A DNA stretch of 64,000 nt, taken from assembly GCA_964612295.1 (NCBI GenBank), contig CAZTDY010000005.1, forward strand, positions 70,666-134,665, in the 5' to 3' direction. This document shows positions 2,107 to 64,000 of the stretch, piece after piece. The first letter of the stretch is position 1. Each line of letters begins with the position of its first letter. The stretch comes from an uncultured bacterium. GTDB taxonomy: Bacteria; Eisenbacteria; RBG-16-71-46; CAIMUX01; WJJG01. The position numbers and the translations under genes were made by a program. The notes under the pieces are model-generated. The model saw only the letters and a list, made by a program, of their open reading frames with translations, was not told the DNA's origin and did not search any database.

Positions 2107-2603
2107 CGCCGGGCGTTCCAGAGAAGGATCCGGTCGGGCGCGATGCGCTCGATCTCGGTGGCGACCTTACCCGTGACAATCGCGAAGTCCCGCGGCAGCA
2201 GTTCGCCCGAATCCAAGATGGCCGTGTCCCCTTGGGCCAGGCGGCGAACGAGTCCGGGCGCCACGTCAAGGAAGGTGATACGCCCGTCCGGCAGCTCGAA
2301 GAAGAAGCGCTTCGGTCCCGCCTCTCGCATGCTCAGATCCGAATCCTTGAGGAGCGAAACCAGCCGGGACTGACCGCCGGCCGAGGCCTTGTCGGCGCGA
2401 AGCTGCTCCTCATGTTGGCGATCTTGGTCGCGTTTGCGTTCTTGTTCCGCCTGATGGGCTTCTTCGCGCTGCCGGCTCTCCGCTTCCAGACCGTCCTGCC
2501 CGAGTTTCTTGCGTTTGACGCGGTCGCCGTGCTTCTTCTGGCGGATCTCCTTGTCGGAGACCAACCCGGCCTTCTTCAATGCGTCGCTCAGATCAGCCAT
2601 CAT
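2103..2603 (-). CDS. DUF2058 (YaiL-like) protein
   Basis: The likely start is MMADLSDALKKAGLV at 2603. It has a lysine/arginine-rich middle and the C-terminal GPKRFFFELPDGRITFLDV...LAQGDTAI block typical of the DUF2058 family. The longer ORF to 2714 overlaps the neighbouring gene. Confidence 0.6.
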   Translation of the reverse strand: MMADLSDALKKAGLVSDKEIRQKKHGDRVKRKKLGQDGLEAESRQREEAHQAEQERKRDQDRQHEEQLRADKASAGGQSRLVSLLKDSDLSMREAGPKRFFFELPDGRITFLDVAPGLVRRLAQGDTAILDSGELLPRDFAIVTGKVATEIERIAPDRILLWNARR

Positions 2604-3484
2604 TGGCCACGCACTTGCCGGTAGATTGTCTTGATCCCGCCCCAGGTCCGCTTCTGTGAGGGAACCAGGAAGTCGCAGGGGTTTGGATCGCAGCGCACAT
2701 CCCAGCCGACCCACACGCCTCCGGTGGCGAGGCAGTCCAGCTCTTCAGAGATTGAACACTCATACCCGAAGCAGCAGACCCGCTCGAACGGAAGCTCGCT
2801 GATGCGCGGGTTCCAGCCGGCCATGTTGAGCCCCGCCGCGGGATAGGATTCCAAGGCCTTAACATGGTTGTCCAAACCGTTCATGTAGAAGAGCACCAAC
2901 CCGTGAATGGGGTAGGCGCCGAGCCACACGCGGCCGTTTCCACCGAAGGCGGCGAACCAGATCAGGGGCACGACATGGCTGGTTCTCGGCGGGTCGAATT
3001 CGATGCGAATGCCCGTGGTGTCACCCGGGAACTCGACATGCGGGTAGGCGTACCGGCCGGCGTGTCCCCAATCGAGGATCTCCAGGCCTTCGATGTACTC
3101 GATGCCGAACTCGACGATGTGAAGGTCCACGCAGGTCGTATCGGGGAAGACGGCGCACACCCAGAAAAGGCCGGTGGGGCCTAGGCTTCCCGGACCAGTC
3201 TGCACCTCCAGCGTGGGCTCCAGCGCGGTCCCGTAGTGGCAATCGTACATCAGCCGGTAGTATCCGCAGCTGTCCGGGGCGATCTCGGGGCAGGACTCCG
3301 GAAACAGATCGATGTAGTAGGCCGGATCGGTGATGTTCGGATCGTATTCCAGGGTTGGATCGCAATGGACCATCAGGTAGCCGCCCTCGTTGGATCCCAT
3401 TGCGGCGCAAGGCGCGCTGGCGACTAGGAGCATTCCGGCGACCGTCAAAAGCAAGCACATCCATTTGCCTATACGTGTGCGCAT
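2600..3484 (-). CDS. Secreted cysteine-rich protein with conserved Cys-rich C-terminal module
   Basis: N-terminal signal peptide (MRTRIGKWMCLLLTVAGMLLVASAPCAAMG). The C-terminal 61 aa, VCCFGYECSISEELDCLATGGVWVGWDVRCDPNPCDFLVPSQKRTWGGIKTIYRQVRGQ, share the motif found at the C-termini of the 43807..45231 and 62501..63301 products. The body resembles the 62501 protein loosely. Confidence 0.7.
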   Translation of the reverse strand: MRTRIGKWMCLLLTVAGMLLVASAPCAAMGSNEGGYLMVHCDPTLEYDPNITDPAYYIDLFPESCPEIAPDSCGYYRLMYDCHYGTALEPTLEVQTGPGSLGPTGLFWVCAVFPDTTCVDLHIVEFGIEYIEGLEILDWGHAGRYAYPHVEFPGDTTGIRIEFDPPRTSHVVPLIWFAAFGGNGRVWLGAYPIHGLVLFYMNGLDNHVKALESYPAAGLNMAGWNPRISELPFERVCCFGYECSISEELDCLATGGVWVGWDVRCDPNPCDFLVPSQKRTWGGIKTIYRQVRGQ

Positions 3485-5714: not shown

Positions 5715-5737
5715 TGCGAGATGAGGGAGTGACGCCC

Positions 5738-38595: not shown

Positions 38596-38717
38596 CGGAG
38601 ACCGGATCCGGGCGTGAGAGTCACGCCGTTGCGCACGTTGCACAATCCACCCGACCGACGGGTGGACCCACATCGGAATTGATGATCTCGGCCGCGAGGC
38701 CGAATAAGGAGGCATTC

Positions 38718-39536: not shown

Positions 39537-39710
39537 CGCCGACGGGGGCGGGAGAGCACTGCCCTCCCGCCCTCCGGTAGCCCCGCCCCAATTCTTGCTT
39601 CCGGCCTTTCTGGGGAGTATCCTCTCCGTTCAATTGTACGTACTGACTTGAGTATCCGTTTTCGACCGGCACGTCCGGCCGAATTCAATTGAGATCAATT
39701 CGAAATCCTC

Positions 39711-41273: not shown

Positions 41274-41327
41274 CTCTGACGGCGGCAACCGACCTATAGC
41301 ATTCACGCGAGAAAGTGGAGGATAAAG

Positions 41328-43469: not shown

Positions 43470-43497
43470 CCCGTGCACGGCCAATTCGACCTTATGA

Positions 43498-43530
43498 GGG
43501 GGCAGGCTGGGCCTGCCCCCTTCGCTGTGT
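43498..43530 (+). terminator. Intrinsic terminator candidate after the M16 peptidase pair
   Basis: Perfect 10-bp GC stem GGGGGCAGGC-tgg-GCCTGCCCCC followed by UUCGCUGUGUG, 29 nt after the stop at 43469. Confidence 0.5.
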
Positions 43531-43578
43531 GCTCGCCCGATCCCCACCCCTCCGACACCCCTCAAATCCAGCTTTCAC

Positions 43579-43608
43579 TTGATAAACCCGGCACTTACAC
43601 GCTATAAT
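43579..43608 (+). promoter_or_regulatory. Strong sigma-70-like promoter (TTGATA-N18-TATAAT)
   Basis: TTGATA at 43579-43584 and a consensus TATAAT at 43603-43608. The next start codon is 43807, implying a ~190-nt leader. Confidence 0.55.
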
Positions 43609-43806
43609 CCGCGTTGTGATGGGGGATTGGACCGATTGGTCAGAGCACCGGTCCGTGTTCGGGTTCGGATGGGCACGTTGTGTGGCCACCAACTTTGCTT
43701 CCGTCCGGAAGGAGCTTCCCGGGCAGGATTTCGATCCAAGTCTTCCCAGCATCAGACCCATAGGCAACTAGGTAACCGGCAACCCTAGGAAGGGGAGGAC
43801 CTGCCA

Positions 43807-45231
43807 ATGCGTGCACGCACTATCATGTCTCTGTTGGCCGTCCTAGCTCTCGCCATTCCGGCAGGAGCGGATGTGCTGATCAACGAGATCGACTGCGACA
43901 CCTCGGGAACCGATACACTCGAGTTCCTCGAGCTGTTCGGCGATCCGAACGCTCCCTTGGATGGAATGGTCCTGGTCCTGTACAACGGATCGGACGATGC
44001 ATCCTACAACGACGCCTTCGACCTCGATGGCTTCACCCTTGATGGAGACGGCTTCTTCCACATCGGTAATGTCGATGTGGTCCCGACGCCGGACATCATC
44101 ATCCCCAGCAACGGTATCCAGAACGGTCCCGATGCGGCTGCTCTGTACTACGGTGACGGCGTGGACTTCCCGAATGACACGCCCCTCACGCTCGACAATC
44201 TGATCGACGCCGTGGTCTATGGCACCAGCGATGGTGACGATCCCGAGCTGCTCGTCCTGCTTCTCGCCGGCCCCCAGGTCGATGAGAACCTGAACGGCAA
44301 CAAGGACTTCGAGTCCATCTTCCGTTGCCCCGACGGTGGCGGCGGCGCTCGCGTGACGACTGAATTCGCGGTTGGCGTCCCGACGCCTGGCGCGACCAAC
44401 GATCCGAGCTGTGGCGGTGGTCCCGAGCCGACCGACTACAACCTCTGCGATCTGCTTGAGCTGGACGCCCTGGGTGTTCCGGTCCTCGTGGGTGAGTATG
44501 TTCACGTCATCGAGCCGCTCCTCGTCCTGCAGGATTACGGCACGATTGCCACCGGCCGCATCGACAACGCTGCGACCGACGGCACCTGCTGCATCTACCT
44601 CTTCGATTACAACCAGGATCTGCCCCTCTACGAGGGTGATGAGCTGGACGTGATCGGCGTGGTGGACTTCTACAACGGCAAGACCGAGATCTCGGCTCTG
44701 GAGATCACGCTCCTCTCGTCGGGCAATCCGCTTCCGACGCCTGAGCTGATCACCACCGAAGAGCTCGCGGTCAACGGTGAGGACTATGAGTCCTGCCTGA
44801 TCCAGATCGACGATCTCGCGATCGTCGGCGGCGACTGGCCGCTCGAGGGCGACAGCGCCAACCTCGATGTTCAGGATGAGACGGCTGTCCCGACGGTCCT
44901 GCGCATCGACAGCGACACCGACATCGACGGCAGCCCCGCTCCCGTCGAGCCGTTCATCTGCACCGGGATCGCCGGCCAGTACGACTACAGCGAGCCTTAC
45001 GATGAGGGCTACCAGATTCTGCCTCGCAAGCTCGAGGATATTGAGGGCTTCGTGCCCCCGCCGACGCAGGCTTGCTGCTTCGACGACGGAAGCTGCCTGG
45101 AGCTGACCGCCGAGGACTGCGAAATTGCTGGTGGAGTCGTTTACGACGACGAATTCTGCGATCCGAACCCTTGCCCGCCCACGCCGGCCGACAATTCGAG
45201 CTGGGGCGAGATCAAGAGCCTGTATCGCTAG
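43807..45231 (+). CDS. Secreted lamin-tail-domain (LTD) protein with Cys-rich C-terminal module
   Basis: Signal peptide MRARTIMSLLAVLALAIPAGA. The LTD hallmark DVLINEIDCDTSG…LEFLELFG… and a second beta-sandwich-like region. The C-terminal 52 aa ACCFDDGSCLELTAEDCEIAGGVVYDDEFCDPNPCPPTPADNSSWGEIKSLYR. Confidence 0.75.
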   Translation: MRARTIMSLLAVLALAIPAGADVLINEIDCDTSGTDTLEFLELFGDPNAPLDGMVLVLYNGSDDASYNDAFDLDGFTLDGDGFFHIGNVDVVPTPDIIIPSNGIQNGPDAAALYYGDGVDFPNDTPLTLDNLIDAVVYGTSDGDDPELLVLLLAGPQVDENLNGNKDFESIFRCPDGGGGARVTTEFAVGVPTPGATNDPSCGGGPEPTDYNLCDLLELDALGVPVLVGEYVHVIEPLLVLQDYGTIATGRIDNAATDGTCCIYLFDYNQDLPLYEGDELDVIGVVDFYNGKTEISALEITLLSSGNPLPTPELITTEELAVNGEDYESCLIQIDDLAIVGGDWPLEGDSANLDVQDETAVPTVLRIDSDTDIDGSPAPVEPFICTGIAGQYDYSEPYDEGYQILPRKLEDIEGFVPPPTQACCFDDGSCLELTAEDCEIAGGVVYDDEFCDPNPCPPTPADNSSWGEIKSLYR

Positions 45232-45307
45232 GACTGGACAAAGGCACCTGCGGGCTGGTGGCGTAAGCTCACTGACCAGAACGTAACGCCTGAGTTTGAA
45301 GAGAGGA

Positions 45308-45342
45308 TGGCCCGCTTCCTTGCGGGCCGCCTCTCTTTTTTT
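45308..45342 (+). terminator. Rho-independent terminator
   Basis: GGCCCGC-ttcctt-GCGGGCC stem-loop followed by CTCTCTTTTTTT, 77 nt after the stop at 45231. Confidence 0.7.
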
Positions 45343-45348
45343 GTAGGC

Positions 45349-45486
45349 GGGGGGAGGGGGAGATCCCAGCAGCTCTCGTCGCTCCGGGCTTCGCAAGGCT
45401 CAGAGTCGCTCCTCGAGCTCTGGGATCTCCCCCTCCATCCACAAAGCAAGCGTGTGCCCTCTGGATCTCCCCCCCATCCTCCCGCC
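45349..45486. repeat. Three copies of a ~17-nt G/C-rich element (GGAGGGGGAGATCCCAG), one forward and two reverse, forming a long inverted repeat
   Basis: 45353-45369 GGAGGGGGAGATCCCAG; 45420-45436 CTGGGATCTCCCCCTCC (perfect reverse complement); 45468-45486 a degenerate third copy, CTGGATCTCCCCCCCATCC. Confidence 0.6.
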
Positions 45487-45549
45487 GACCGCAACCTCCC
45501 GACCTGCTCCCCACGTATCGTCAGATATGCCAGGCGCCACTCGGGCACC

Positions 45550-45579
45550 TTGACCCGGACGCGGGAGCGTGCCTATGCT
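45550..45579 (+). promoter_or_regulatory. Sigma-70-like promoter candidate (TTGACC-N18-TATGCT) for the Yip1-like gene
   Basis: TTGACC at 45550-45555 and TATGCT at 45574-45579, ~55 nt upstream of the 45634 start. Confidence 0.35.
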
Positions 45580-45633
45580 GCGTGGTGACATGGGGCGAAG
45601 CTGTGCCCGTGAGAGACGGGCAGGGAGGTCCTG

Positions 45634-46155
45634 ATGAACTTCACGGATGCGATCAAGAAGGGCTTCGAGCTGGTCAAGCTGAACCGCGAGGCCTACCGGG
45701 AGATCGCCGGCAATCCCGAGGCGTTCACGCCGGCCATCCTCATTGCGGCAGTGGCCGGCCTCGCCAATTGGCTCAGCCCACCGTTCAATCTCCTCGGCTT
45801 CATTCTGTATCCCATCTTCGAAGTGATTGCCCTGGCTTTCGTGACGGCCGTGATCCACTTCGTGGTCATCCTCCTAGGGGGTCGAAGCGACTACATGACC
45901 CTGTTCCGGGTTCTGGGGATTGCCTGGATCATCCGCTGGGCGCAGGTGATCCCGGCGCTCGGCTGGGTGGTCGGCATGGTCTGGGGGCTGGTGATGTCGG
46001 TCGTGGCCGTTGAGGAGCTGGTCGGGTTCGATCGAATGAAGTCGATCGTCACCGTGATCCTTCCCTTTGCCGCCGTCATCGTCTTGGGGCTCATCTTCTC
46101 GGTCATCTTTGGGGTGGCCATGCTGGGCTTCATGGGCTTCTCGGGCATGTGGTAG
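45634..46155 (+). CDS. Yip1-domain integral membrane protein
   Basis: Five predicted TM helices and the conserved Yip1-like N-terminal pattern (…EAFTPAILIAAVAGLANWLS…). Confidence 0.6.
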   Translation: MNFTDAIKKGFELVKLNREAYREIAGNPEAFTPAILIAAVAGLANWLSPPFNLLGFILYPIFEVIALAFVTAVIHFVVILLGGRSDYMTLFRVLGIAWIIRWAQVIPALGWVVGMVWGLVMSVVAVEELVGFDRMKSIVTVILPFAAVIVLGLIFSVIFGVAMLGFMGFSGMW

Positions 46156-46167
46156 GGCAGGCAATCC

Positions 46168-47253
46168 ATGGCGCTCAAGCTGGGAATCATCGGCATGCCC
46201 AACGTGGGCAAGTCCACGCTGCTGAACGCCCTCACGCACGCCCATGCGGAAGCCTCGAACTACCCGTTCTGCACCATCGAGAAGAACGTGGGCGTGGTGA
46301 CCGTCGCCGATCCCAACTTAGAGAAGCTCGCCGGCGTGCTCGAACCGAAGGAGACGATTCCAGCCCACATCGAATTCGTGGATATCGCCGGGCTGGTGCG
46401 CGGGGCCAGCAAGGGGGAGGGCCTGGGGAACAAGTTCCTCGGGCACATCCGGGATGTCGATGCCGTCGCGCACGTGTTGCGCTGCTTCACGGATGAGAAT
46501 GTGGCGCACATCGACGGTCGCGTGGATCCCATCGCCGATTTCGAGATCGTGGAGACCGAGCTTCTGCTGGCGGATCTCGAGGCCCTGGAGCGACTCAAGG
46601 ACCGCACCGAAAAGCAGGGCAAGAGTGATCCGAAGGGGATCAAAGAGGATCTCGACCGCATCGAGAGCCTCATGGAGCGGGTCAAAGAGGGCGTGCCCCT
46701 GCGCCGCCTCGAGCTGGGCGAAGAAGAGCAACACTGGGCACGCGAGTACGGTCTCCTGTCGGCCAAACCGGTCATGACCGTCGCGAACGTGGATGAGGAC
46801 GACCTGACCGGAGGGGGATGGGTCGGCCGCCTTCGGGAGTCGTTGGGATCAGAGGTGGCCGTACTGCCGGTGCCGGTTCGGATCGAGGAAGAACTGGCCG
46901 CACTGTCGCCGGAGGAGCGCCAGACCTTCATCGAGGAGCTGGGACTGGAGGGCAGCGGTCTGGACCGCGTCGTGTCTGAGGGCCGCAAGCTCCTAGGTCT
47001 GATCACCTTCTATACGATCGCCAACGAGAAGCTCCAGGCCTGGTTGATTCCCCAAGGGATGACCGCGCCGCGCGCCGCGGGACGCATCCACACCGACATG
47101 GAGAAAGGCTTCATTCGTTTGGAGGCCATGTCGGTCGCGGACCTGCTCGAGCATGGCGGCCGGGCGGCCCTCCAGAAACTGGGCAAGGTGCGCGTCGAGG
47201 GGCGCGACTACCTCATCCAGGAAGGGGACGTCTGCCAGGTTCTCTTCAACTGA
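46168..47253 (+). CDS. ychF: Ribosome-binding ATPase YchF (Obg-family)
   Basis: GIIGMPNVGKSTLLNALT, NYPFCTIEKNVGVV, DIAGLVRGASKGEGLGNKFL, plus a C-terminal TGS domain. Confidence 0.9.
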   Translation: MALKLGIIGMPNVGKSTLLNALTHAHAEASNYPFCTIEKNVGVVTVADPNLEKLAGVLEPKETIPAHIEFVDIAGLVRGASKGEGLGNKFLGHIRDVDAVAHVLRCFTDENVAHIDGRVDPIADFEIVETELLLADLEALERLKDRTEKQGKSDPKGIKEDLDRIESLMERVKEGVPLRRLELGEEEQHWAREYGLLSAKPVMTVANVDEDDLTGGGWVGRLRESLGSEVAVLPVPVRIEEELAALSPEERQTFIEELGLEGSGLDRVVSEGRKLLGLITFYTIANEKLQAWLIPQGMTAPRAAGRIHTDMEKGFIRLEAMSVADLLEHGGRAALQKLGKVRVEGRDYLIQEGDVCQVLFN

Positions 47254-52686: not shown

Positions 52687-54252
52687 ATGGGATTCAAGCC
52701 TGAAGAAGTCAGTTCGGTATTGCGCAAGGAGCTGGAGAAGTATGAGACCCAGCTCGAGATGGCCTCGGTGGGCCAGGTCCTGCAGGTGGGAGACGGGATC
52801 GCGCGCGTGTGGGGGCTTCAGGAGGCCATGGCGGGCGAGCTGCTCGAGTTCCCCGGCAATGTCGTGGGCATGGTCCTCAACCTGGAAGAGGACAATGTCG
52901 GTGTGGTGCTCTTTGGCTCCGACGAGCTGATCAAAGAGGGCGACATGGTGCGCCGAACCGGCAAGCTGGCCAGCGTGCCGGTGGGCAAGGGCGTGATCGG
53001 CCGGGTTGTCAATCCGCTCGGTGAACCCTTAGACGGCAAGGGCGAGGTCGTGTTCGAGGAGGAGAGCCCCCTCGAGGCCGTGGCGCCCACCGTTGTGGAA
53101 CGCCAGCCCGTGAATCAGCCGGTCCAGACCGGCCTCAAGGCGATCGACTCGATGATCCCGATCGGCCGCGGGCAGCGCGAGCTGATCATCGGGGACCGCC
53201 AGACAGGCAAGACCGCCCTGGCGATCGACACGATCCTCAATCAGAAGAACTCCGACATCATCTGCATCTACGTCGCCATCGGTCAGAAGGAATCGACCGT
53301 GGCCCAGGTGGTCAAGACGCTCGAGAACTACGGCGCCATGGAGTACACCACCGTGGTGAATGCGAGTGCCTCGCAGCCGGCTCCTCTGCAGTACATCGCT
53401 CCCTACGCCGGCTGCGCGATGGGCGAGTACTTCCGCGATCGCGGCCAGCACGTCGTCTGCATCTACGATGACCTGTCGAAGCAGGCCGTGGCCTACCGGC
53501 AGCTCTCGCTCCTCTTGCGCCGCCCGCCGGGTCGCGAAGCCTATCCGGGTGACATCTTCTATCTTCACAGCCGTCTACTCGAGCGGGCCGCCAAGCTCAG
53601 CGACGAGAAGGGCGGGGGCAGTCTGACCGCGCTGCCGATCATTGAAACCCAGGCCGGCGATGTCTCAGCCTACATTCCCACCAACGTCATCTCGATTACC
53701 GACGGACAGATCTTCCTGGAGAGCGACCTCTTCTATGCCGGAATCCGTCCCGGTATCAACGTCGGTATTTCGGTGTCGCGAGTTGGTGGTAAAGCCCAGG
53801 CCAAGGCGATGCGTAGGGTGGCGGGCCGCCTGCGTCTCGACCTCGCGCAGTATCGTGAGCTCCAGGCCTTCGCCCAGTTCGGTTCCGATCTGGACGAGGC
53901 CACTCAGCGGCAGCTTCTGCGCGGCGAACGGATGACCGAGATTCTCAAGCAGGGCCAGTATGAGCCCCTGTCACTCGAAGACCAGGTCATGATCATCTAT
54001 GCTGGGGTGGGCGGCCTCTTGGACACGCTTCCGGTGGAGAGCCTGCATCGCTTCGAGAAAGAGTTCCTCGCGCACATGCACGAGAAGAATCCCGACGTCC
54101 CCAACGCCATCAAGGAGGAGGGGAGCATCTCGGAGAAGACCGAAACGGCGCTGAGGGGTGACATCGAGCAGTTCGTTGCTTCCTTCGACGCCGATGTTGA
54201 AGTCAGAGCCAAAGAGGCGCGAGAGGCGGCTGCAGCCCAGGCGGCGCGGTAG
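52687..54252 (+). CDS. atpA: F1 ATP synthase subunit alpha
   Basis: P-loop [18 protein letters not shown] and [32 protein letters not shown]. Confidence 0.95.
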
Positions 54253-54281
54253 ATTGCCGGACAAGAGGCGGGATTGAACTG

Positions 54282-55397
54282 ATGCGTAGGGTTGTTCTGG
54301 TCATAGTGCTGCTGCTCCTTCTGGGAGCCGGCTACGTGGGCACGAAGAAATTCGTGACCTACGCGCACGCCTATACCGGAACGACCTTCAATGCAGCAAG
54401 CCTCGAAGGCTCCGAGCCTGGCTACTTCTATCTCGACTGGCGGGGCGATCTGTCTCCTGAAGCGGTGAGCGGCCTGCTCGATGCGAACGGCCTGCTCGAC
54501 TTCGGGGATGCCGAGTCGTTTAGAGACCGCACCTACCGGGACCCGCTGCGCGTCATTCAGGCTTGCCTGGGGCTGCACGATCAGCTCCTGACCTCCCCCG
54601 ATCCGGAACTGGAGACCCTTCTCCGGCGGCAGGTCGACTGGCTTTTGGATGAGGCCATGCTGGAGCTTCCGGGCGATATCCCCGTCTGGCCGCAGTACTA
54701 TCGCTTCGATCGCTACGGGCTCACCGCTCCCTGGATTTCGGCTCTCACGCAGGGGCAGGCCATCAGCCTTCTCGTCCGCATGGCCGTCCTGACGGGCGAA
54801 GAGCGCTACGCGGAGCACGCCTTCCAGGCCACGCTCGCGTTCACGACAGAGGGCTGCCCGATTGTCTGGCGCGGAGAAGACGGGCTCTTCTTCGAGGAAT
54901 ATCCCTGCGATCCGCCTTCACACGTGCTCAACGGGTGCCTGTTTGCCTGGTTGGGGTTGTGGGATTGGGCCCGCTATCAAGGGGACCAAGGCTACCGTCA
55001 ATACTGCCTCGATTGCCTTGAGCAGATCGAGCAGAGGGTCCCGGAGTTCGAACTCGGCAACTGGACCCGCTACGACGTCCTGCAAGAGCGCCCCACCAGC
55101 CCGACCTATCAGGAGATTCACGCTGCGTTGGCCGAGGCGCTCGAGGCGATCACCGAGAAGCCCTTCTGGGCCGATCGTGCTCACCGTTGGCGCGGGGCGG
55201 CTGACGATAGGCTGGTGCGAAGCCGCGTGTTTTTCGAAGTGCTGGTCAATCGCATTTCCGAGAAGATCCTCGGGCGCCCCCAGCCCGAGGGACGGGGACT
55301 CAAGAACGTCCGGCTTCTCCAGACGCAAGCCGGTCGGCCAATCCTGCTCGATGATCGGGCGCATACCCTATCCGGACGCAGAAGGGAGATCGCGTAG
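54282..55397 (+). CDS. D-glucuronyl C5-epimerase-like domain protein with N-terminal membrane anchor, inserted inside the atp operon
   Basis: N-terminal TM (MRRVVLVIVLLLLLGAGYVG). …PWISALTQGQAISLLVRMAVLTGEERYAEHAFQATLAFT…FFEEYPCDPPSHVLNGCLFAWLGLWDWARY…NWTRYDV… parallels the C-terminal domain of eukaryotic/bacterial glucuronyl C5-epimerases (…[21 protein letters not shown]…[26 protein letters not shown]…). Its stop is 1 nt before the atpG start. Confidence 0.7.
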   Translation: MRRVVLVIVLLLLLGAGYVGTKKFVTYAHAYTGTTFNAASLEGSEPGYFYLDWRGDLSPEAVSGLLDANGLLDFGDAESFRDRTYRDPLRVIQACLGLHDQLLTSPDPELETLLRRQVDWLLDEAMLELPGDIPVWPQYYRFDRYGLTAPWISALTQGQAISLLVRMAVLTGEERYAEHAFQATLAFTTEGCPIVWRGEDGLFFEEYPCDPPSHVLNGCLFAWLGLWDWARYQGDQGYRQYCLDCLEQIEQRVPEFELGNWTRYDVLQERPTSPTYQEIHAALAEALEAITEKPFWADRAHRWRGAADDRLVRSRVFFEVLVNRISEKILGRPQPEGRGLKNVRLLQTQAGRPILLDDRAHTLSGRRREIA

Positions 55398-57685
<2,288 letters not shown>

Positions 57686-57695
57686 GAGCCAAGCC

Positions 57696-58115
57696 ATGGA
57701 AGCAACCCATCAGGTCGTACTGCTGACCCCGGAGAGGACCCTCCTGGAAACGGAGATCGCCAGTCTGGTCGCCCCCGGGTCCGAAGGATTCCTCGGAATC
57801 CTGGCTCATCATGCTCCTCTGATCACCGGCCTGAAGCCCGGGCCCGTGACCTTGACCCTTCCGGGAGGTCGCAAGGAGGTGTACTCTGTCAGCGGCGGCT
57901 TCCTCGAGGTTTCGAACAACCGAACGGTAATCCTGGCGGATGCCGCCGAACGGCCGGAGGAGATCGACCTGAGCCGGGCCGAAGCCGCGCGGGATCGCGC
58001 CAAGGACCGCCTGGAGCGCCGCACGCCGGAGTTGGATGCAGCCCGCGCAGAAGCGGCCCTGGCCCGGGCGCTCAATCGGGTCTACGTTGCGAGGACCTTC
58101 GTAGGAAGCCTGTAA
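57696..58115 (+). CDS. atpC: F1 ATP synthase subunit epsilon
   Basis: 139 aa with a beta-sandwich N-terminal domain and helical C-terminus (…VSGGFLEVSNNRTVILADAAERPEEID…). Confidence 0.85.
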   Translation: MEATHQVVLLTPERTLLETEIASLVAPGSEGFLGILAHHAPLITGLKPGPVTLTLPGGRKEVYSVSGGFLEVSNNRTVILADAAERPEEIDLSRAEAARDRAKDRLERRTPELDAARAEAALARALNRVYVARTFVGSL

Positions 58116-58170
58116 CAGCCGCCCAGGGGGCACATCCGGTGGGGGTGGCCGCTGGCGGCAGGACGGTGGC

Positions 58171-59406
58171 ATGCCCGACCCTCAAAGCTCACCGACAACC
58201 CTCGACCTTCTTGTTCGCTTGCTCCGCTGGCGCCGTCTGATTCTGATCAACACGCTTGTTGTGGCCGTCGCGGCGGTGGTGATCAGTCTCCTGCTCCCGA
58301 ACTGGTATGAGGCCGAGGTGAGCCTCCTGCCCCCGAAGGACGAACTCGGCATGTTGGGCGGAGCGCTGGGGGGCCTGGCCGGCTCGATGGGAGGCGGCAG
58401 TTCCGCCCTGGCCACGCTGTCTGCAAGCTATAACCTCCCTCTCTGGTCTTCTCCCTCGGATCTTCTGGTCGGTGTTCTTCGCAGTCGCCGGCTTCGCGAA
58501 GCGGTCGCGCGGGAACATGAGCTGGCCGAGGTGTACAAGGTCGAGAATATCGACCAGGTCCTGCTGGCGATGCGCGAGCGGATCAAGACCGGCGCGAGGA
58601 TCAACGGCATCGTCTGGATGAAGGTTCTCGACAAGGAACCGGAACGGGCGGCCGCGATCGCTCAGTCCTGTCTCGATCACTTAGACACCATTCAGCGCGA
58701 GACCAACCGCAGCCGTGCAGCGGCAGTCCGGCAGTTCATCGAGCAGCGGTTGGCGGCGACCGAGCAGGGCCTGGGAGCGGCCGAGGATTCCCTGCAGGCG
58801 TTCCAGGAGCGGCACGGCCTGCTGGCCCCTGAGGAGCAGACCCGCGCTCTGGTCGAAACGATTGCCGGCGTGGAGGCCCAGCGCCTGGCTGCGGTCGTGG
58901 AACGGGACGCGCTTCTCGCACAGGTGGGGGCCGATCATCCCGAGGTGAAACGATATCAGGCGCTCGTCACCTCCCTGGAAGAGGCAAGGGCCTCTCTCGA
59001 GGGAGACTGGTCCCGGGCGGCGAGGGGAGGCCCCTCGGCGATCATCGGGCTCGATCAGCTGCCCTCGCTCACCTTTGAGTTCCTGCGCCGCTATCGCGAA
59101 GCGGAGATCCAGGCCGCCGTCTTCGAACTGCTGACCCAGCTCCATGAGCAGTATCGTATCCAGGAAGTCCGGGATCTGCCGACGATTCAGGTGCTCGATC
59201 CGCCCGTCGCTCCGCTGGAAAAGGCGCGGCCCCATCGCGCGGTGATCTGCGTGATTGCCACGCTGCTCGCCTTTTTTGTCAGCCTCCTCGTGGCCTGGCA
59301 ACTCGATCGCGCGGCACAACTGGCGGAACGTAGTCCAGGTCAGTACGCGCAACTCGAGCGTCTGCTCTCCGGTGTCGGCCTGCGGTTCATCCTCCCGCGG
59401 AGGTAG
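58171..59406 (+). CDS. Polysaccharide co-polymerase (Wzz/chain-length determinant) family protein, no kinase domain
   Basis: An N-terminal TM after LVRLLRWRRLILINTLVVAVAAVVISLLLPNWYEAEVSLLP (Wzz-type start), a long periplasmic coiled-coil region, and a C-terminal TM (AVICVIATLLAFFVSLLVAW). Confidence 0.7.
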   Translation: MPDPQSSPTTLDLLVRLLRWRRLILINTLVVAVAAVVISLLLPNWYEAEVSLLPPKDELGMLGGALGGLAGSMGGGSSALATLSASYNLPLWSSPSDLLVGVLRSRRLREAVAREHELAEVYKVENIDQVLLAMRERIKTGARINGIVWMKVLDKEPERAAAIAQSCLDHLDTIQRETNRSRAAAVRQFIEQRLAATEQGLGAAEDSLQAFQERHGLLAPEEQTRALVETIAGVEAQRLAAVVERDALLAQVGADHPEVKRYQALVTSLEEARASLEGDWSRAARGGPSAIIGLDQLPSLTFEFLRRYREAEIQAAVFELLTQLHEQYRIQEVRDLPTIQVLDPPVAPLEKARPHRAVICVIATLLAFFVSLLVAWQLDRAAQLAERSPGQYAQLERLLSGVGLRFILPRR

Positions 59407-59408
59407 CC

Positions 59409-60917
59409 ATGAACGCCGCCGCGGTCGCCAATCTGCCGCAGCGCGGATTCTGGTTGTCGGTTCTGTTTGCTGACCTCCTGATCCTTCTGCTCTTGCCCAA
59501 GGTCACCCTCTTGGTTCTGGTCGCGGCGATCCTCCTGCTCGTTCTGGGCGGTCTGAGACGTCCCGAGTGGATCCTGGCATTCATGCTGACCGGAACACCG
59601 CTGCTCGGTGCACTGCCTCCCCATTCGATCTCAGGCAGCGTGTTGATCTACGGGCTTCGACTCATGTTCGTGATCGGGCTGATCTGGGGGCTCCGGCAGG
59701 TTCGCCTGGGCAGTGGGGGCACAGGGTTCGGCATCGGATCCGTGGCCGGTCCGGTCCTTCGCGACAGCCGCACGTGGATTGCCATCGGACTGCTGGTCGT
59801 GCTCTGGGTCGGATTGCAGGCCACCCCTTCGCCACACTATGGGAGCGGGAAGACGGTCTCGTTCCTCCTGCTGCCGGTCTTCCTCTACCTCGCCGGAGCG
59901 CTCATGTGGCCGCTTTGGTCTACGCCCGGCCACCTGAATCGCCTCTTGCGCGTTTCTGTCGTTCTGGGGGGGGTGGTGGCAGCCTGCGGTTTGGCGGCTG
60001 CGTTGGGGGCAGACCATGAGTTTCTCCGGGCCAACCAGGGCGGGGGACTGTATCGCGGCGGTGGGCGACTGGCCTGGTTAGGGTCGAACGTGATCTGGAT
60101 GGCGCGCATCCTCGCGGTCTGGATGGTGCTGCTACTCTGGGCGGCCTCGAGAAACGTCGTGCGACCGGCAGTCGCAGTCCTGCTGGTCGTGGCCGGACTC
60201 TATCTCATGCTGCGCACCGGATCTCGCGGGCCACTTCTGGCGTTGCTGCTCTCACCTTCGGGGCTGCTGCTATTGCCGAAGAGACCGAAGCCGGCGGCTC
60301 CGGAAGTCACGCCCGGCCGATCACGTCGCTCGCGAACCTGGGGACTGGCCGTCGCGGTGGTGCTACTGGCGGTGGGTGCGCTCGCTCTGACGACGCCCGA
60401 ACAAAAGGCCACGCTGACCCAGGCCGTCGGACGGGGGACGTTCGGTACAATGCTCCAGGTGGTGGGCATCGACACGGCTTCTCTGGGAGGCGGACAGCTG
60501 GCCGCGGCAGACCCGTCCGCCAACTTCAGGCTGCAAATCGCACAAGGCGGTCTGGAGCAGATGCGCGAGGGTCTGCCCTGGGGCCACGGCACGGGCGCAT
60601 TCTCAACCGTCCTTTTTGGTCGGGACTTCCGGATCTATCCCCACAATGCCTTTGTTGAAGTTCTCTTCGAGAACGGCTTGCCAGGCTTGCTGCTCCTGCT
60701 CCTGTTCATTCTCCTCTCCTGGCGCGGTGCCATCCGGCTTTCGCGTCACACACCCGCCGCCCGCTGGCTGTGGGTGTTGCTGATGATGGCGCTCATCAAC
60801 GCTCAGGTCAGCGGAGATCTGCCGGCCAACGAGCTGATCTGGTTCTGGGGCGGGATGATCGTGGCCTTGCAGATCGCCGCGCACCGCCGGCTGCTCCAAG
60901 CGTCGCACGCAGGATAG
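59409..60917 (+). CDS. O-antigen ligase / Wzy_C-domain polymerase-like membrane protein
   Basis: About 11 TM helices, with a large periplasmic loop carrying the Wzy_C/WaaL-like motif GHGTGAFSTVLFGRDFRIYPHNAFVEVLFENGLPGLLL. Confidence 0.7.
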   Translation: MNAAAVANLPQRGFWLSVLFADLLILLLLPKVTLLVLVAAILLLVLGGLRRPEWILAFMLTGTPLLGALPPHSISGSVLIYGLRLMFVIGLIWGLRQVRLGSGGTGFGIGSVAGPVLRDSRTWIAIGLLVVLWVGLQATPSPHYGSGKTVSFLLLPVFLYLAGALMWPLWSTPGHLNRLLRVSVVLGGVVAACGLAAALGADHEFLRANQGGGLYRGGGRLAWLGSNVIWMARILAVWMVLLLWAASRNVVRPAVAVLLVVAGLYLMLRTGSRGPLLALLLSPSGLLLLPKRPKPAAPEVTPGRSRRSRTWGLAVAVVLLAVGALALTTPEQKATLTQAVGRGTFGTMLQVVGIDTASLGGGQLAAADPSANFRLQIAQGGLEQMREGLPWGHGTGAFSTVLFGRDFRIYPHNAFVEVLFENGLPGLLLLLLFILLSWRGAIRLSRHTPAARWLWVLLMMALINAQVSGDLPANELIWFWGGMIVALQIAAHRRLLQASHAG

Positions 60918-60920
60918 GCG

Positions 60921-62393
60921 GTGGTCATGGGGAATCGGGTCGCAGCAGAGTCGCCACCAGCCCAGCCCAAGTGGGCGGGATTGATTCTGGTGGGTGCCAC
61001 CCTGCTGATTGCCTTCGGACTACTCGATTCGATCGCTCGTTTCCCTCGCGGACTGCTGACCGACGACGCCTACTTCTACGCCAAGATCGCATCGAACCTG
61101 GCGCGCGAAGGCCTCGCATCGTTCGATGGAATTCATCCGACGGACGGCACCCATTTGCTGTGGACCTGGGTCCTGGCCGGCGTCTCCTGGCTCATGTTTC
61201 GTCTGACGACGGACAGCGGAGTTCATCTCTCTGCGATGATCGCGGCCTACCTCTTGCTCGCCGCCTGGATTGGAATGCGCTTCGGGCGCTCGCTCGCCTG
61301 GGCCATCGTCCTCTTTCTGCTCAGCGTCATTTTCAAGATGCTCATGGAGACGACGCTGCTGGCCTTTCTTCTGCTGATCCTGAGCGACGAACTGCTCTGG
61401 CGCCCTTCGCGAGGCAGGCGGGGGTGGTGGAAACTCATCCTCTGCGCACTCCTGGTACCGCTCGTGAGGATCGATGCGCTCTTCATGCCGATGCTTCTCG
61501 CAGTGGGAGCTCTGATCGCCCGGAGAGATCAGCATAGCGGTTGGCTGGTGGGGGCCTCGTCGACCCTGGGAGGCGGGCTTCAGCTCATCGCCAACCATGC
61601 GATCAGTGGGCACTGGACATCGGTATCCGCCCAGATCAAAGCCGCGCCCCTGGCGATCGGGCAGAACCTGGCAGCCAATCTGACCGGCCTCTACTGGGGC
61701 GGGATGCTCTCATTCGGGCTGTTTGTCCTGGCTCTCCTCTTTGCGTTCCTGCGTGCGCGGCGCCAAACGCGCCATGATCTGCGATGGGGGAGTTACGCCG
61801 CGCTCGCGACAGCCAGCGCCTTCGTTGTGGCGCATCTGCTGCTGAACAGCTGCATGCGCTATTGGTACTACGTGCCGGCCCTCTATCTGGTCCTTCAGAC
61901 GGTCATCGCGTTGTCCTCGGGCCGAAGAGGTTCCGATCTGAAGACCTTCTCGCGGGTGCTCGCGGTGGTCCTCATCACTGGGCTGATCGCCAAGTACGCG
62001 GTGGACAGTCACCTTCGGGCCCGCGAGATCGATCATTCGAGACACTTCGTTACGGAGGTCAAACGCCTGGTTCCTCCAGACGCCCCTGTGTTCCAGATCG
62101 ACGGGACCGGCTATGTCGGATACTTCACGGGGCGCACGATCATCAACGGGGACGGCCTAGCCAACACGCACGCGTTCGCACGGCGATTGCGCGAGAACGG
62201 TTTGGCTGGATATCTCGAAGAGAACGGTATCCGGTATCTGGTCCACAGTACCTATCCGGTTCAGGACAGGTTGCTTTCACATCATGGTCTCGTCGTGCGC
62301 TCAGAAGATGTGGAGGTGCTGGTGACTCCGCCTGCGGGGCTCGCCCGGCATACCGCCTTTGGGTTGTATAAGCTCAACGGGGAAGCGCCCTAA
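60921..62393 (+). CDS. GT-C-fold-like integral membrane glycosyltransferase candidate
   Basis: Multi-TM protein with an early periplasmic DDAYFY motif (DxD/DExxY-like, as in ArnT/PMT/GT39-83 families) after TM1. Confidence 0.45.
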   Translation: MVMGNRVAAESPPAQPKWAGLILVGATLLIAFGLLDSIARFPRGLLTDDAYFYAKIASNLAREGLASFDGIHPTDGTHLLWTWVLAGVSWLMFRLTTDSGVHLSAMIAAYLLLAAWIGMRFGRSLAWAIVLFLLSVIFKMLMETTLLAFLLLILSDELLWRPSRGRRGWWKLILCALLVPLVRIDALFMPMLLAVGALIARRDQHSGWLVGASSTLGGGLQLIANHAISGHWTSVSAQIKAAPLAIGQNLAANLTGLYWGGMLSFGLFVLALLFAFLRARRQTRHDLRWGSYAALATASAFVVAHLLLNSCMRYWYYVPALYLVLQTVIALSSGRRGSDLKTFSRVLAVVLITGLIAKYAVDSHLRAREIDHSRHFVTEVKRLVPPDAPVFQIDGTGYVGYFTGRTIINGDGLANTHAFARRLRENGLAGYLEENGIRYLVHSTYPVQDRLLSHHGLVVRSEDVEVLVTPPAGLARHTAFGLYKLNGEAP

Positions 62394-62442
62394 ATCGTGC
62401 GCCGGGGGGTGTCGGAATAGGCCGGGCCGACTATCCTTGCTG

Positions 62443-62487
62443 GTGAGAGAGAACATACTGTGACATTGACGGCCGTTGCTCTCTCAC
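62443..62487 (+). promoter_or_regulatory. Stem-loop (9-bp GTGAGAGAG/CTCTCTCAC arms, 27-nt loop) immediately upstream of the RBS of the 62501 gene
   Basis: Perfect inverted repeat ending 6 nt before GGGAGGAAGCC-ATG. It may be an attenuator or operator, or may occlude the RBS. Confidence 0.3.
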
Positions 62488-62500
62488 GCGGGAGGAAGCC

Positions 62501-63301
62501 ATGCGCATCACCGGTCTACTTCTAGGAATACTCCTCTTCACGCTCACCCCGGGCCAGGTCAGATCGGATCCCGACGATCTCTTCGCAGGCTATCTGATCA
62601 CCCATGCCCCAGCCGACTTCGTCTACTCAGCGGGCATGGATTGGTGCTCATCATACGGCGAGTACGGTATCTCCCATACTGCGGAGCAGATCGTGACAAT
62701 GCCGATTACGGCCGATCCCCTGAACCCCACACTGTTCTTCGTCGTGGCAGCGTTTGAGGAGGACAAAACGTGGTGTGCAACGGAATTCGGATTCTCCGCT
62801 GACTTCAACGGGCTGTTCTATTTCACCGAAAGCGGCCCCTGTCTGGCGCACAACCTCGAGAACGCGACCGATGGGTGGCCGGGCCCTGGCGAGGGAACCG
62901 CTGTCGTGGCAACCGATGTCCAATGGGAAGGCAACCTCCTTCCCGTGTATTTCTTCATCGGGTACACCTACTACGAGAGCCTGATCTCTCTCGACGTGGA
63001 TCCTGCCATGGACTTCGCGGGATTCGGCAATTGCGAACTTCCCTCCACGACTTTCGACGCCGTCTGTCTGGGGGCCATGGGGGTGGGCATGGACGGCCAT
63101 ATGTGCGGTGGCCCCGGTCCGGTATATGGCGCCTGCTGCGTGGATGGGGAACCCTGTGACTACGTCGTTGAAGACGACTGCACGGAGGTCGGAGCGACCT
63201 TCTTTCCCCACACGAGTTGCGACCCCGACCCCTGCGTCACCCCGGCAGTCAAGGCACCCAGCTGGGGCTGGGTCAAAGCGAAGTACCGTCCGACGCGATA
63301 G
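62501..63301 (+). CDS. Secreted protein with Cys-rich C-terminal module (paralog-like to 2600..3484 product)
   Basis: Signal peptide MRITGLLLGILLFTLTPGQVRS. The C-terminal 56 aa ACCVDGEPCDYVVEDDCTEVGATFFPHTSCDPDPCVTPAVKAPSWGWVKAKYRPTR. Confidence 0.75.
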   Translation: MRITGLLLGILLFTLTPGQVRSDPDDLFAGYLITHAPADFVYSAGMDWCSSYGEYGISHTAEQIVTMPITADPLNPTLFFVVAAFEEDKTWCATEFGFSADFNGLFYFTESGPCLAHNLENATDGWPGPGEGTAVVATDVQWEGNLLPVYFFIGYTYYESLISLDVDPAMDFAGFGNCELPSTTFDAVCLGAMGVGMDGHMCGGPGPVYGACCVDGEPCDYVVEDDCTEVGATFFPHTSCDPDPCVTPAVKAPSWGWVKAKYRPTR

Positions 63302-63453
63302 AGGCCGCCTTCGAAATGAGGACCTGAAGCGCTTGGGCCCACCTCACCCGAAGATGCCCGTGGCAAGATCAAACGCTAGGGGATAGACTGCAGCTCTGAT
63401 CGTCTGATGATCGGAAGCCAATGCTTATGTGACCGGGGGGGCAGGACACGAGC

Positions 63454-64000
63454 ATGATTGGTCTTAGGCATCTCCTTTCAAGACTACTCCTTGTCTGCGC
63501 GGGGCTAGCCATTGTCGCCCTCCTGCTTATCACCCTCAATCTGACCCAGGGTGAACCTCTTCGCTTGAGTCGGTTTCGAGAGACTACCTTGATATTCCAT
63601 GGTTTGATGGCGCTGGCACTCCTGATCGCTCCCGACCGCCGCCGCCGCTTGAGCCAATGGGCATCCAGGGCGCGAACCGTGTTGGAACACCCCCGCTTTG
63701 TTCACTTCGCAGTACCTATTCTGGCCGGTTTGTTTGTCTGGAGATCAATTTGTGGACATCTTGCCTATCAGACCTTCTCGCATGATTTCTCAATGATCGA
63801 TGAGGCTCTGTATCAGACGCATCAAGGCAATGTCATGTTCAGCTCCATCCTTGGCCGGAGTTTTTTCTCGGAGCACTTCTCTCCGATTCTGCTTCTTCTT
63901 GTTCCATTGCACCGGCTATGGACAAGCCCCTATCTACTCCTTGTTGTGCAGCCGCTGGCGCTGATCGGTGCGGGGCTCCTCGTGCGGCGGATCCTGCTTG
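63454..64000 (+). CDS. DUF2079-like integral membrane protein, 3'-truncated by window end; locally low GC
   Basis: ATG at 63454. TM-rich with the conserved-looking YQTFSHDFSMIDEALYQTHQGNVMFSS motif, similar to the (H)HDFDLGIxxQALWN region of DUF2079 proteins that accompany glycosyltransferases. GC ~52% versus ~66% for the window. Confidence 0.45.
   Translation, partial: MIGLRHLLSRLLLVCAGLAIVALLLITLNLTQGEPLRLSRFRETTLIFHGLMALALLIAPDRRRRLSQWASRARTVLEHPRFVHFAVPILAGLFVWRSICGHLAYQTFSHDFSMIDEALYQTHQGNVMFSSILGRSFFSEHFSPILLLLVPLHRLWTSPYLLLVVQPLALIGAGLLVRRILL

Follow-up and report, generated by a model that had tools for sequence, protein, structure and literature searches.

The protein encoded near the end of the window (the whole stretch of 64,000 nucleotides analysed here) terminates in a short motif, [ST]-W-G-x-I-K-x-x-[YF]-R, that is previously undescribed and that recurs at the extreme C-terminus of many otherwise unrelated proteins of Candidatus Eisenbacteria. 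With moderate confidence we read this end-motif, from comparative sequence data, as a lineage-specific, non-tripartite C-terminal sorting or retention signal, and the Cys-rich units that precede it in some carriers as a stalk. Its role would probably be to direct unrelated secreted proteins within the cell envelope. Judging from the distribution of the two parts, the tag that is shared among the carriers is the end-motif and not the Cys unit. Pfam and NCBIfam hold no family that matches the tail, and a search of the literature on the motif and on secretion, sorting and Cys-rich proteins in Eisenbacteria returned nothing relevant.

According to the preliminary description, bases 63131-63301 encode the third copy of a Cys-rich C-terminal module, and the count is borne out. 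The quoted peptide matches the C-terminus of the ORF exactly (...ACCVDGEPCDYVVEDDCTEVGATFFPHTSCDPDPCVTPAVKAPSWGWVKAKYRPTR*), with residues A211-R266 corresponding to bases 63131-63298, and a six-frame regex scan of the window returned exactly three places where the Cys pattern and the tail lie together, at 2600-2776(-), 45073-45231(+) and 63134-63301(+). Shuffling the window 200 times gave 0.0 tail-pattern and 0.35 Cys-pattern hits per shuffled window, compared with three observed for each, and an alignment of the three modules has 17 invariant columns. It is the word 'module' that needs revision: the element is indeed shared, but it is not a single unit, since each of its two parts, the Cys unit and the terminal motif, is also found without the other. 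The three proteins, here called A, B and C (Table 1), all possess a signal peptide. Protein B differs from protein C in having an unrelated N-terminal part, which gave only weak matches to DUF5689, an OB-fold and ExeM/NucH in domain searches; the gene order M16-M16-B-membrane protein-YchF is conserved in five genomes. The N-terminal domains of proteins A and C are remote homologues (hhalign probability 98.3%, E 1.7e-14), and the BLASTP alignment of the two is confined to the C-terminal module.

Table 1. Positions in the window of the three tagged genes, the parts of protein C and the genes around it.
Feature	Positions	Strand	Remarks
Protein A, third tagged gene, 294 aa	2600..3484	-	Cys unit 2675-2776; tail TWGGIKTIYR 2618-2647, then QVRGQ
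Protein B, second tagged gene, 474 aa	43807..45231	+	Cys unit 45073-45174; tail SWGEIKSLYR 45199-45228
Wzz/GNVR	58171-59406	+	Pfam; upstream context, outside the tagged system
Wzy_C	59409-60917	+	Pfam; upstream context, outside the tagged system
490-aa GT-C-like membrane protein	60921-62393	+	No Pfam match of its own; context
Hairpin	62443..62487	+	9-bp perfect stem, 27-nt loop; from sequence
Protein C, tagged gene, 266 aa	62501..63301	+	ORF list and sequence; stop codon 63299-63301
N-terminal signal peptide of protein C, ~residues 1-22	62501..62566	+	Boundary approximate
Predicted beta-sandwich domain of protein C, ~residues 26-200	62576..63100	+	Cohesin-like fold; AF2 pLDDT mostly >90
Single 6-Cys unit of protein C, A211-C245	63131..63235	+	ACC..C..C..C-DPDPC
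Pro-rich linker of protein C	63236..63259	+	VTPAVKAP
Terminal motif of protein C with extra PTR	63260..63298	+	SWGWVKAKYR at 63260-63289
DUF2079 membrane protein	63454..64000	+	Pfam PF09852, E 8e-10; runs off the window; context

Protein C is present in identical copies on 20 contigs from several samples. Its N-terminus combines a basic start with a hydrophobic core according to a crude Kyte-Doolittle heuristic; the AF2 model has low pLDDT in this region. A Foldseek search of the PDB with the model of the following N-terminal domain gave the cohesin modules 2vo8 and 2jh2 as best matches (E 5e-4, TM 0.62-0.65 normalised by target, 9-11% identity), and the Pfam search of this domain yielded no match, Cohesin (PF00963) included. 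The modelled head of protein C is thus cohesin-like at the level of fold only. Closer relatives of the protein (51-59% identical) carry three tandem Cys units at the place where protein C has one. Its copy of the motif is atypical, with V instead of I and the three surplus residues PTR. Signal peptide, cohesin-like head, disulfide-rich spacer, Pro-rich linker and 10-residue end-motif would together make up the layout of a displayed surface protein.

The consensus of the tail, drawn as a logo from 146 non-redundant sequences, is [ST]-W-G-x-I-K-[AS]-[LRI]-[YF]-R. Conservation of W and K is imposed, as the search pattern fixed both; within the classes that the pattern allowed, conservation reaches 99% for G, 83% for I, 99% for Y/F and 89% for R. 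Positions outside the pattern are conserved as well, with Ser/Thr at -1 in 100% and Pro at -6 in 77% of the tails and T/V at -7. The protein ends exactly at the Arg in 116 of the 146 tails (79%) and at most eight residues away from it in the remainder, a precision which suggests that the terminus itself may be what is recognised. No transmembrane segment follows, as the proteins stop at the motif, and the maximum 15-aa Kyte-Doolittle value over the last 40 aa has a median of 0.16. The basic residues amount to one terminal Arg and an internal Lys and form no cluster.

At least 91 genes in the loci examined carry the tail at their extreme C-terminal end; they fall into 34 BLAST-unrelated groups, and most of them have no Cys unit. 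Among the passenger domains are right-handed beta-helix/NosD, PPC and choice-of-anchor E. Several copies are found per genome: three contigs of the MAG CAZNJE01 (L005, L009 and L014) carry 2, 1 and 2 tagged genes, respectively, and tandem clusters comprise up to five. A signal-peptide-like N-terminus was called in 89 of 116 tagged proteins as opposed to 109 of 385 untagged ORFs, by a crude heuristic whose misses among the tagged proteins are in many cases visibly mis-called starts. With an HMM of the N-terminal domain of protein C, 83 proteins were retrieved from the pool. Sixty-one of them end in the tail and about 14 in a terminus of the type '..GVYF.RL...R.LVLLR'; all eight proteins of the latter type that were tested have FlgD_ig and/or Por_Secre_tail/CHU_C as their terminal domain. 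The named genomes with tail matches, from a scan for the module that used a 5-sequence alignment, are nearly all Candidatus Eisenbacteria MAGs, and the YchF encoded in the window is 70-76% identical to that of these MAGs. Every known carrier of the tail comes from an uncultured organism.

The 6-Cys unit of ~35 aa has a far wider distribution, as a tandem extracellular repeat. A word-indexed search with the module profile recovered only 26 short fragments, whereas an exhaustive search with the 6-Cys profile gave 5,510 clusters (50% identity), in which a single protein can contain as many as 34 units. The unit has no match in Pfam, NCBIfam or the PDB, by sequence or by fold; its AF2 model is a small beta-beta-alpha-beta fold (pLDDT 80-86). 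Many of the repeat proteins finish without the tail, and in other lineages they have termini that, judged by eye, resemble dockerin-type or TM-anchor-type ends. Because this family of 5,510 clusters is covered by neither Pfam nor NCBIfam, a domain model for the unit would bring annotation to thousands of giant surface proteins.

In the mechanism that we propose, protein C would be exported via the Sec pathway with [ST]-W-G-x-[IV]-K-x-x-[YF]-R at or beside its free carboxyl terminus. In the periplasm a putative envelope factor would read the end-motif, and this reading would send the protein to the envelope or retain it there, along a route parallel to that of the T9SS-type C-terminal domains of the same organisms; the Cys units would form a stalk whose length varies. 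We infer the sorting or anchoring role, the receptor and the stalk; what the sequences themselves show is the anatomy of the domains, the independence of Cys unit and motif, the C-terminal placement, the multiple copies in a genome, the variety of carriers, the exchange with T9SS-type domains and the near-confinement to Eisenbacteria-affiliated MAGs. A clustering of gene neighbourhoods over ~0.89 Mb of tagged loci detected no recurrent untagged family beyond ordinary synteny, and no candidate for a reader or processing enzyme. Four apparent candidates for the machinery were discarded. An initial 'cluster' of large proteins beside tagged genes proved to combine T9SS-type with tail-bearing proteins, linked through domains that they share, M16 peptidases recur only through the synteny around protein B, RND/MFP pumps recur in five loci in varying arrangement, and the S41 peptidase of the window (37234-38595) is not syntenic in relatives. 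As a tentative outline, which goes further than the reading of the motif itself and in which we place less than even trust, Eisenbacteria, together with a small number of neighbouring lineages of the FCB group, could possess an undiscovered sorting or anchoring pathway in which the TM-less peptide [ST]WGxIKxx[YF]R-COOH, of roughly ten residues, is read via its free C-terminus, beside the T9SS of the same cell, on dozens to hundreds of secreted proteins that mostly lack annotation, and in which the 6-Cys repeats constitute a new and very widespread extracellular stalk family. Such a tag would mark the surface proteome of an uncultured phylum whose secreted proteins are almost wholly unannotated, and the tail is defined well enough to serve as a target in phylogenetic profiling for the machinery that reads it.

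The same features of the tail could be read in other ways. It might be a docking peptide, a miniature 'dockerin' that binds a partner beta-sandwich non-covalently, such as the heads of proteins C and A, and thereby builds a surface scaffold of several proteins; it would then serve assembly and not be a signal for a sorting machine. The cohesin-like fold of the C head, with its remote homologue in A, agrees with this, as does the presence of the tail on many unrelated passengers; the precise C-terminal end would fit a binding pocket, and the hydrophobic moment, which peaks at the periodicity of a beta-strand (0.60 at 180°), is in keeping with the addition of a strand. The likeness to cohesin is nonetheless restricted to the fold, given the low identity (8-13%) and the missing Pfam match, and proteins that combine head and tail would self-polymerise, so that docking appears unlikely. 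Alternatively, the tail could be a self-sufficient anchor that needs neither receptor nor processing, a short interfacial helix of amphipathic character, with many Trp, Tyr, Lys and Arg residues, that attaches the exported protein peripherally to a membrane leaflet or an anionic envelope polymer. C-terminal amphipathic anchors are known in PBP5 and MinD, the composition of the tail (W, I, L and Y plus K and R) is typical of interfacial anchors, and AF2 places a short helix over W-x-x-K-x-x-Y in two independent models (pLDDT 45-66). The helical moment at 100°, 0.43, is however within one standard deviation of that of shuffled tails (0.37 ± 0.18) and lower than the moment at 180°, for which reason the amphipathic-helix reading of the tail was rejected; nine or ten residues would moreover make a very short anchor, and the near-invariant S/T, W, G, K and terminal R together with the exact end are far stricter than generic amphipathic anchors require. 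We consider a self-sufficient anchor distinctly unlikely. Hardly any weight can be given to the idea that the motif is a structural cap, the last element of Cys-repeat arrays that would serve folding or disulfide register and have no targeting role. All three tails in the window do come after a Cys unit, and many multi-repeat proteins finish with a unit and then the tail. Yet most tagged genes in the fetched loci are devoid of Cys units, the tail follows a non-Cys segment in several multi-repeat proteins (P0048, P0054 and P0099), many repeat arrays end untagged, and AF2 sets the tail apart from the unit, beyond a low-confidence linker. The data on carriers and models have already largely refuted such a cap.

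A further reading starts from the genes around protein C, which the preliminary description assigned to a glycan-biosynthesis locus, with protein C as a possible substrate or component of a surface-glycan or cell-surface assembly pathway. Pfam confirms Wzz, Wzy_C and DUF2079, while the GT-C label is backed solely by one remote homologue that carries STT3/PMT_2/GT22. Protein C could, for instance, receive O-linked glycans in its Pro/Thr/Ser linker or be joined to a glycan of the surface. All of these genes share one strand, the gaps around the protein C gene measure 107 and 152 nt, and no terminator-like or sigma-70-like site was found in these gaps. An invariant Ser/Thr and a Pro-rich linker precede the rest of the motif. 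The Wzy_C family (PF04932) includes WaaL, PglL and PilO and thus protein O-oligosaccharyltransferases. C-terminal tags also have precedents in this respect: exosortases are often situated within EPS loci, and T9SS cargo is described as attached to A-LPS (PMC5562754). The adjacency is, however, conserved neither when viewed from the tagged genes nor when viewed from the glycan genes. Three relatives of protein C on long contigs adjoin NUDIX/PGI, YceG/phosphodiesterase or unknown genes, homologues of Wzz, Wzy_C, the GT-C-like protein and DUF2079 were found in none of the 41 other tagged loci, and the other two tagged genes of the window sit beside pnp/transglutaminase-like genes and M16/YchF genes. 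Conversely, four loci with homologues of the GT-C-like protein contain no tagged gene within 7 kb, and a metagenome scan with this protein gave no match. One of these four, the closest relative (L046, 81% identical protein), keeps the whole atp-Wzz-Wzy_C-GT-C-like block without a tagged gene; nucleotide synteny with it (85% identity) breaks at 62375, a little short of the 3' end of the GT-C-like gene, and neither the tagged gene nor DUF2079 is present at the corresponding position. The GC3 of the DUF2079 gene is 0.60, compared with 0.73-0.79 in its neighbours. Since the tagged relatives are located elsewhere and the L046 block has no tagged gene, the link to the glycan locus is unsupported; involvement of protein C in this pathway is improbable, and its place beside sugar-polymer genes looks coincidental. 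What stands of the earlier suggestion is that the proteins which bear the shared element are exported, as the signal peptides of the tagged proteins indicate, and probably destined for the surface or envelope. A connection of the tag as a whole to glycans, independent of the locus at 58171-64000, may still exist. As a caution of method, proximity to a glycan locus proved to be no functional evidence in this case.

Upstream of protein C, the hairpin that had been said to sit directly on the ribosome-binding site does have its 9-bp stem, in which GUGAGAGAG (62443-62451) pairs with CUCUCUCAC (62479-62487), but it stops 2 nt before the Shine-Dalgarno sequence GGGAGG (62490-62495). A riboregulatory role was rejected: the region folds no better than shuffled sequence (z = -1.5, 15 of 200 shuffles as good, not significant), and the other copies of the hairpin are all from the same organism.

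A sorting or retention signal of the kind proposed here can be measured against the eight attributes of small C-terminal sorting signals (Haft, bioRxiv 10.1101/2023.06.07.544157, section 5), six of which the tail displays (1, 2, 3, 6, 7 and 8). Like the tripartite signals LPXTG/sortase, PEP-CTERM/exosortase, GlyGly-CTERM/rhombosortase and MYXO-CTERM/myxosortase, it is C-terminal, occurs in several copies per genome, contains an invariant motif and is found on unrelated carriers with signal peptides, some of whose homologues bear other signals. The two attributes that it lacks are the hydrophobic TM segment after the motif (attribute 4) and the terminal cluster of 2-5 basic residues (attribute 5). 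With neither of these, the tail resembles none of the signals of sortase, exosortase, rhombosortase or myxosortase type, which makes it unlikely that an intramembrane or membrane-anchored transpeptidase of such a kind acts on it. T9SS C-terminal domains offer a parallel in that they, too, occupy the extreme C-terminus of soluble, Sec-exported proteins, many per genome and on unrelated passengers. T9SS-type domain and tail are alternatives on homologous passengers, and the organism itself carries both kinds of protein, the T9SS type being represented in the window by a BNR protein (33099-34400). A T9SS domain is nevertheless a folded Ig-like domain of ~70-100 aa, for which the tail, 10-17 aa behind a Pro-rich linker, is far too short. 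None of the three proteins of the window was hit at E<=1 by Por_Secre_tail (PF18962/TIGR04183), CHU_C (PF13585) or FlgD_ig (PF13860), the last of which serves as a C-terminal domain of this type in FCB-group bacteria, and the HMMs of T9SS C-terminal domain families likewise had no match in ten multi-repeat tail-bearing proteins.

Other systems share individual traits. As in cohesin-dockerin pairs, the predicted fold of the C head is cohesin-like and a short C-terminal element is distributed over many proteins; unlike in these pairs, there is no match by sequence to the Cohesin or Dockerin families, and the tail is devoid of Ca-binding EF-hand repeats. The 6-Cys unit is small, tandem and extracellular like the repeats of adhesin stalks (B-repeats of LPXTG adhesins, EGF/PSI-like disulfide modules), and its number varies among homologues (1 versus 3, and up to 34) between head and putative C-terminal anchor, but it matches none of the known repeat families in sequence or fold. 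The exact end in 79% of the tails recalls peptides that are read through their carboxylate, among them the OMP signal, the PDZ ligands of DegS/DegP, the substrates of tail-specific proteases and PTS1. The OMP beta-signal has a terminal aromatic residue that closes the beta-barrel, whereas the tail ends in Arg (89%) and is borne by soluble proteins of beta-sandwich or beta-helix type rather than by OMP barrels. To our knowledge, the well-understood small C-terminal sorting signals of prokaryotes either have the three parts motif, TM helix and basic cluster or consist of a folded domain of the T9SS type. If a C-terminal tag that is short and soluble bears the same comparative-genomic hallmarks, it would point to a different mechanism of recognition.

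A six-frame scan of the window for a CC..C..C..C..C pattern followed by W-G-x-x-K-x-x-Y-R near a stop codon returned three places, each the C-terminal end of a protein with a signal peptide (A, B and C, 3/3). These modules, each consisting of a six-cysteine repeat of about 35 residues (the Cys unit), a linker and a terminal tail (SWGxIKxxYR), share 17 invariant columns in an alignment. Shuffled windows average 0.0 tails and 0.35 Cys patterns each, so the three copies are real rather than a product of chance. This confirms C, described preliminarily as the third copy, and the peptide quoted for it is an exact match to its last 56 residues. Around B the gene order is kept in five genomes (the window and loci L008, L009, L015 and L018), while the S41 peptidase lies just upstream of this block only in the window.

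Module copies and other features of the window
Feature	Position	Strand	Remarks
Module copy, protein A	2600-2776	-	C-terminal end of ORF 2600..3484 (294 aa)
Two adjacent DUF3857 genes	3672-7687	+	About 660-680 aa; divergent from tagged gene A; one with transglutaminase core, other with sub-threshold DUF3858 match
Sulfatase gene	7691-9676	-	Next after DUF3857 pair
Omp85-superfamily outer-membrane protein gene	10286-12022	-	
Omp85-superfamily outer-membrane protein gene	25324-26838	-	
BNR/sialidase-like repeat protein	33099-34400	+	Ends ...GIYWIRLSL...VLRVK
S41 peptidase	37234-38595		Tricorn_C1 + Peptidase_S41
M16 peptidase - M16 peptidase - B - small polytopic membrane protein - YchF GTPase	38682-47253		
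Module copy, protein B	45073-45231	+	C-terminal end of ORF 43807..45231 (474 aa)
D-glucuronyl C5-epimerase C-terminal domain gene	54282-55397	+	PF06662, E 6e-33; inside ATP synthase operon between atpA and atpG
Hairpin stem	62443-62451 with 62479-62487		
Shine-Dalgarno of C	62490-62495		
Module copy, protein C	63134-63301	+	C-terminal end of ORF 62501..63301 (266 aa)

The AF2 model of C (16-sequence alignment, mean pLDDT 80) contains a confident beta-sandwich at residues about 30-200, a Cys unit with a small beta-beta-alpha-beta fold (pLDDT 71-86), and a linker and tail of low confidence. The N-terminal domain of A is a remote homologue of that of C (hhalign 98.3%); the N-terminal part of B is unrelated to it. 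Closer relatives of C are 51-59% identical in this domain, and in place of the single Cys unit of C the relatives have three in tandem, followed by a C-terminal end ...SWGSIKALYR.

The module is made of two independent elements, the Cys unit and the tail. Neither matches Pfam-A, NCBIfam 20.0 or PDB sequences, and an AF2 model of the isolated module found no Foldseek match in the PDB. The Cys-repeat domain has no existing Pfam or NCBIfam model and is nevertheless very widespread: an exhaustive profile search (E<=1e-3) gave 5,510 clusters at 50% identity, with proteins of up to 4,145 aa and up to 34 matched units. Among the best 150 of these clusters (P0044-P0193) the tail ends at least 54, and other C-termini are T9SS-type or, judged by eye, dockerin-type or TM-anchor-type. 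BLAST divides the 91 tagged genes into 34 mutually unrelated groups, and the head of one tail-bearing protein is of the NCBIfam 'choice-of-anchor E' type (E 3e-43).

A logo of 146 non-redundant tails gives the consensus [TV]-P-[VTA]-[EQRD]-x-x-[ST]-W-G-x-I-K-[AS]-[LRI]-[YF]-R, with Arg as the exact C-terminal end in 116 cases. Two positions that the search pattern left free are conserved as well, -1 as Ser/Thr (100%) and -6 as Pro (77%). The motif strings were not found in the literature searched. By a crude heuristic, 77% of tagged proteins are signal-peptide-like vs 28% of untagged ORFs. Tagged genes often form tandem paralogue arrays of 2-5 in a row (L005, L007, L013, L022, L045); the repeated, nearly identical C-terminal ends of L013 suggest recent duplication or assembly collapse. 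Named-taxon matches in the genome collection are nearly all Candidatus Eisenbacteria, with one Gemmatimonadota and one Latescibacterota label. The YchF of the window is 70-76% identical to that of Eisenbacteria-labelled MAGs, and its AtpA about 90% identical to AtpA of MAGs with the same gene order; from this the window is inferred to belong to the Eisenbacteria lineage.

That C is a substrate of the adjoining glycan genes is poorly supported. The neighbours themselves are as described (Wzz/GNVR, Wzy_C, a 490-aa polytopic membrane protein, the tagged gene, DUF2079), the 'GT-C' label of the 490-aa protein deriving solely from a remote homologue with STT3/PMT_2/GT22 domains. The proposed link to the glycan pathway is not supported, as the adjacency is conserved from neither side: homologues of the four glycan/membrane genes are absent from 41 other tagged loci, and no tagged ORF lies within 7 kb of GT-C-like homologues (51 in all) in the four loci examined. 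On long contigs, relatives of C adjoin NUDIX/PGI, YceG.../phosphodiesterase or unknown genes, often with further tagged paralogues. The closest relative (L046; 81% identical protein) retains atpA-C5-epimerase-atpGDC-Wzz-Wzy_C-GT-C-like, collinear with window 53959 to 62375 at 85% nucleotide identity (8.4 kb). Similarity breaks off there, at the GT-C-like gene's 3' end (L046 8449 onward), and L046 continues with a convergent FlgD_ig protein where the window has the tagged gene and DUF2079. The tagged gene thus sits directly beyond the conserved block, in a segment that varies. The GC3 of the DUF2079 gene (0.60 vs 0.73-0.79 in neighbours) hints at recent acquisition. The hairpin reported directly on the RBS exists, but stops 2 nt short of the Shine-Dalgarno sequence; its region has no folding advantage over shuffled sequence (z = -1.5), and no terminator-like or sigma-70-like site was found in the two intergenic gaps at the tagged gene. 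The C5-epimerase insertion in the ATP synthase operon recurs in L009, L010 and L046. A general link of the tag to some envelope glycan is possible by analogy with T9SS and A-LPS (PMC5562754) and with exosortases in EPS loci; the window locus offers no evidence for it.

The best-supported reading, drawn from comparative patterns alone, is that on proteins exported by Sec the tail serves as a lineage-specific C-terminal signal for sorting or retention, and the Cys units would form a stalk of variable length from functional head to anchor. That tails end strictly at Arg points to recognition that includes the free carboxylate. That the tail instead caps Cys-repeat arrays is poorly supported, tail-bearing ORFs in the loci taken from species-representative genomes and metagenomes being mostly devoid of any Cys unit. 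A rival role as docking peptide for cohesin-like heads recalls the top PDB matches of the C sandwich, cohesin modules 2vo8 and 2jh2 (E about 5e-4, TM 0.62-0.65 normalised by target), although in the model this likeness is a fold-level resemblance only. Another rival makes the tail a self-sufficient interfacial anchor. The tail may be helix or strand: AF2 gives it a short low-confidence helix, and its hydrophobic moment is 0.43 at 100° (shuffles 0.37 ± 0.18) and 0.60 at 180°. As for partners of a sorting signal, once ordinary synteny is set aside, about 0.89 Mb of loci shows no untagged family that recurs beside tagged genes. Pairs of RND transporter and membrane-fusion genes lie a few kb from tagged genes in L028, L043, L050, L051 and L093, a proximity that is probably incidental because orientation and spacing vary.

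The two Omp85-superfamily genes, one with a weak ShlB/FhaC match, confirm a diderm envelope. Genomes with the tail, the window included, also encode T9SS-type cargo: the BNR protein has weak FlgD_ig and Por_Secre_tail matches and a T9SS-type end, and the organism therefore has such tags besides SWGxIKxxYR tails. An HMM of the C N-terminal domain matched 83 proteins in the pool, 61 ending in the tail and about 14 in '..GVYF.RL...R.LVLLR'-type termini; each of the eight tested among the latter (8/8) has FlgD_ig and/or Por_Secre_tail/CHU_C at its extreme C-terminus, FlgD_ig above gathering score in six. Of the eight attributes of small C-terminal sorting signals (Haft, bioRxiv 10.1101/2023.06.07.544157, section 5), the tail shows 1, 2, 3, 6, 7 and 8 but lacks 4 (transmembrane segment) and 5 (basic cluster). 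As the tail has no TM helix, the known kinds of intramembrane or membrane-anchored transpeptidase are unlikely to act on it. SWGxIKxxYR is probably a new variant of C-terminal protein-sorting tag in an uncultured phylum.
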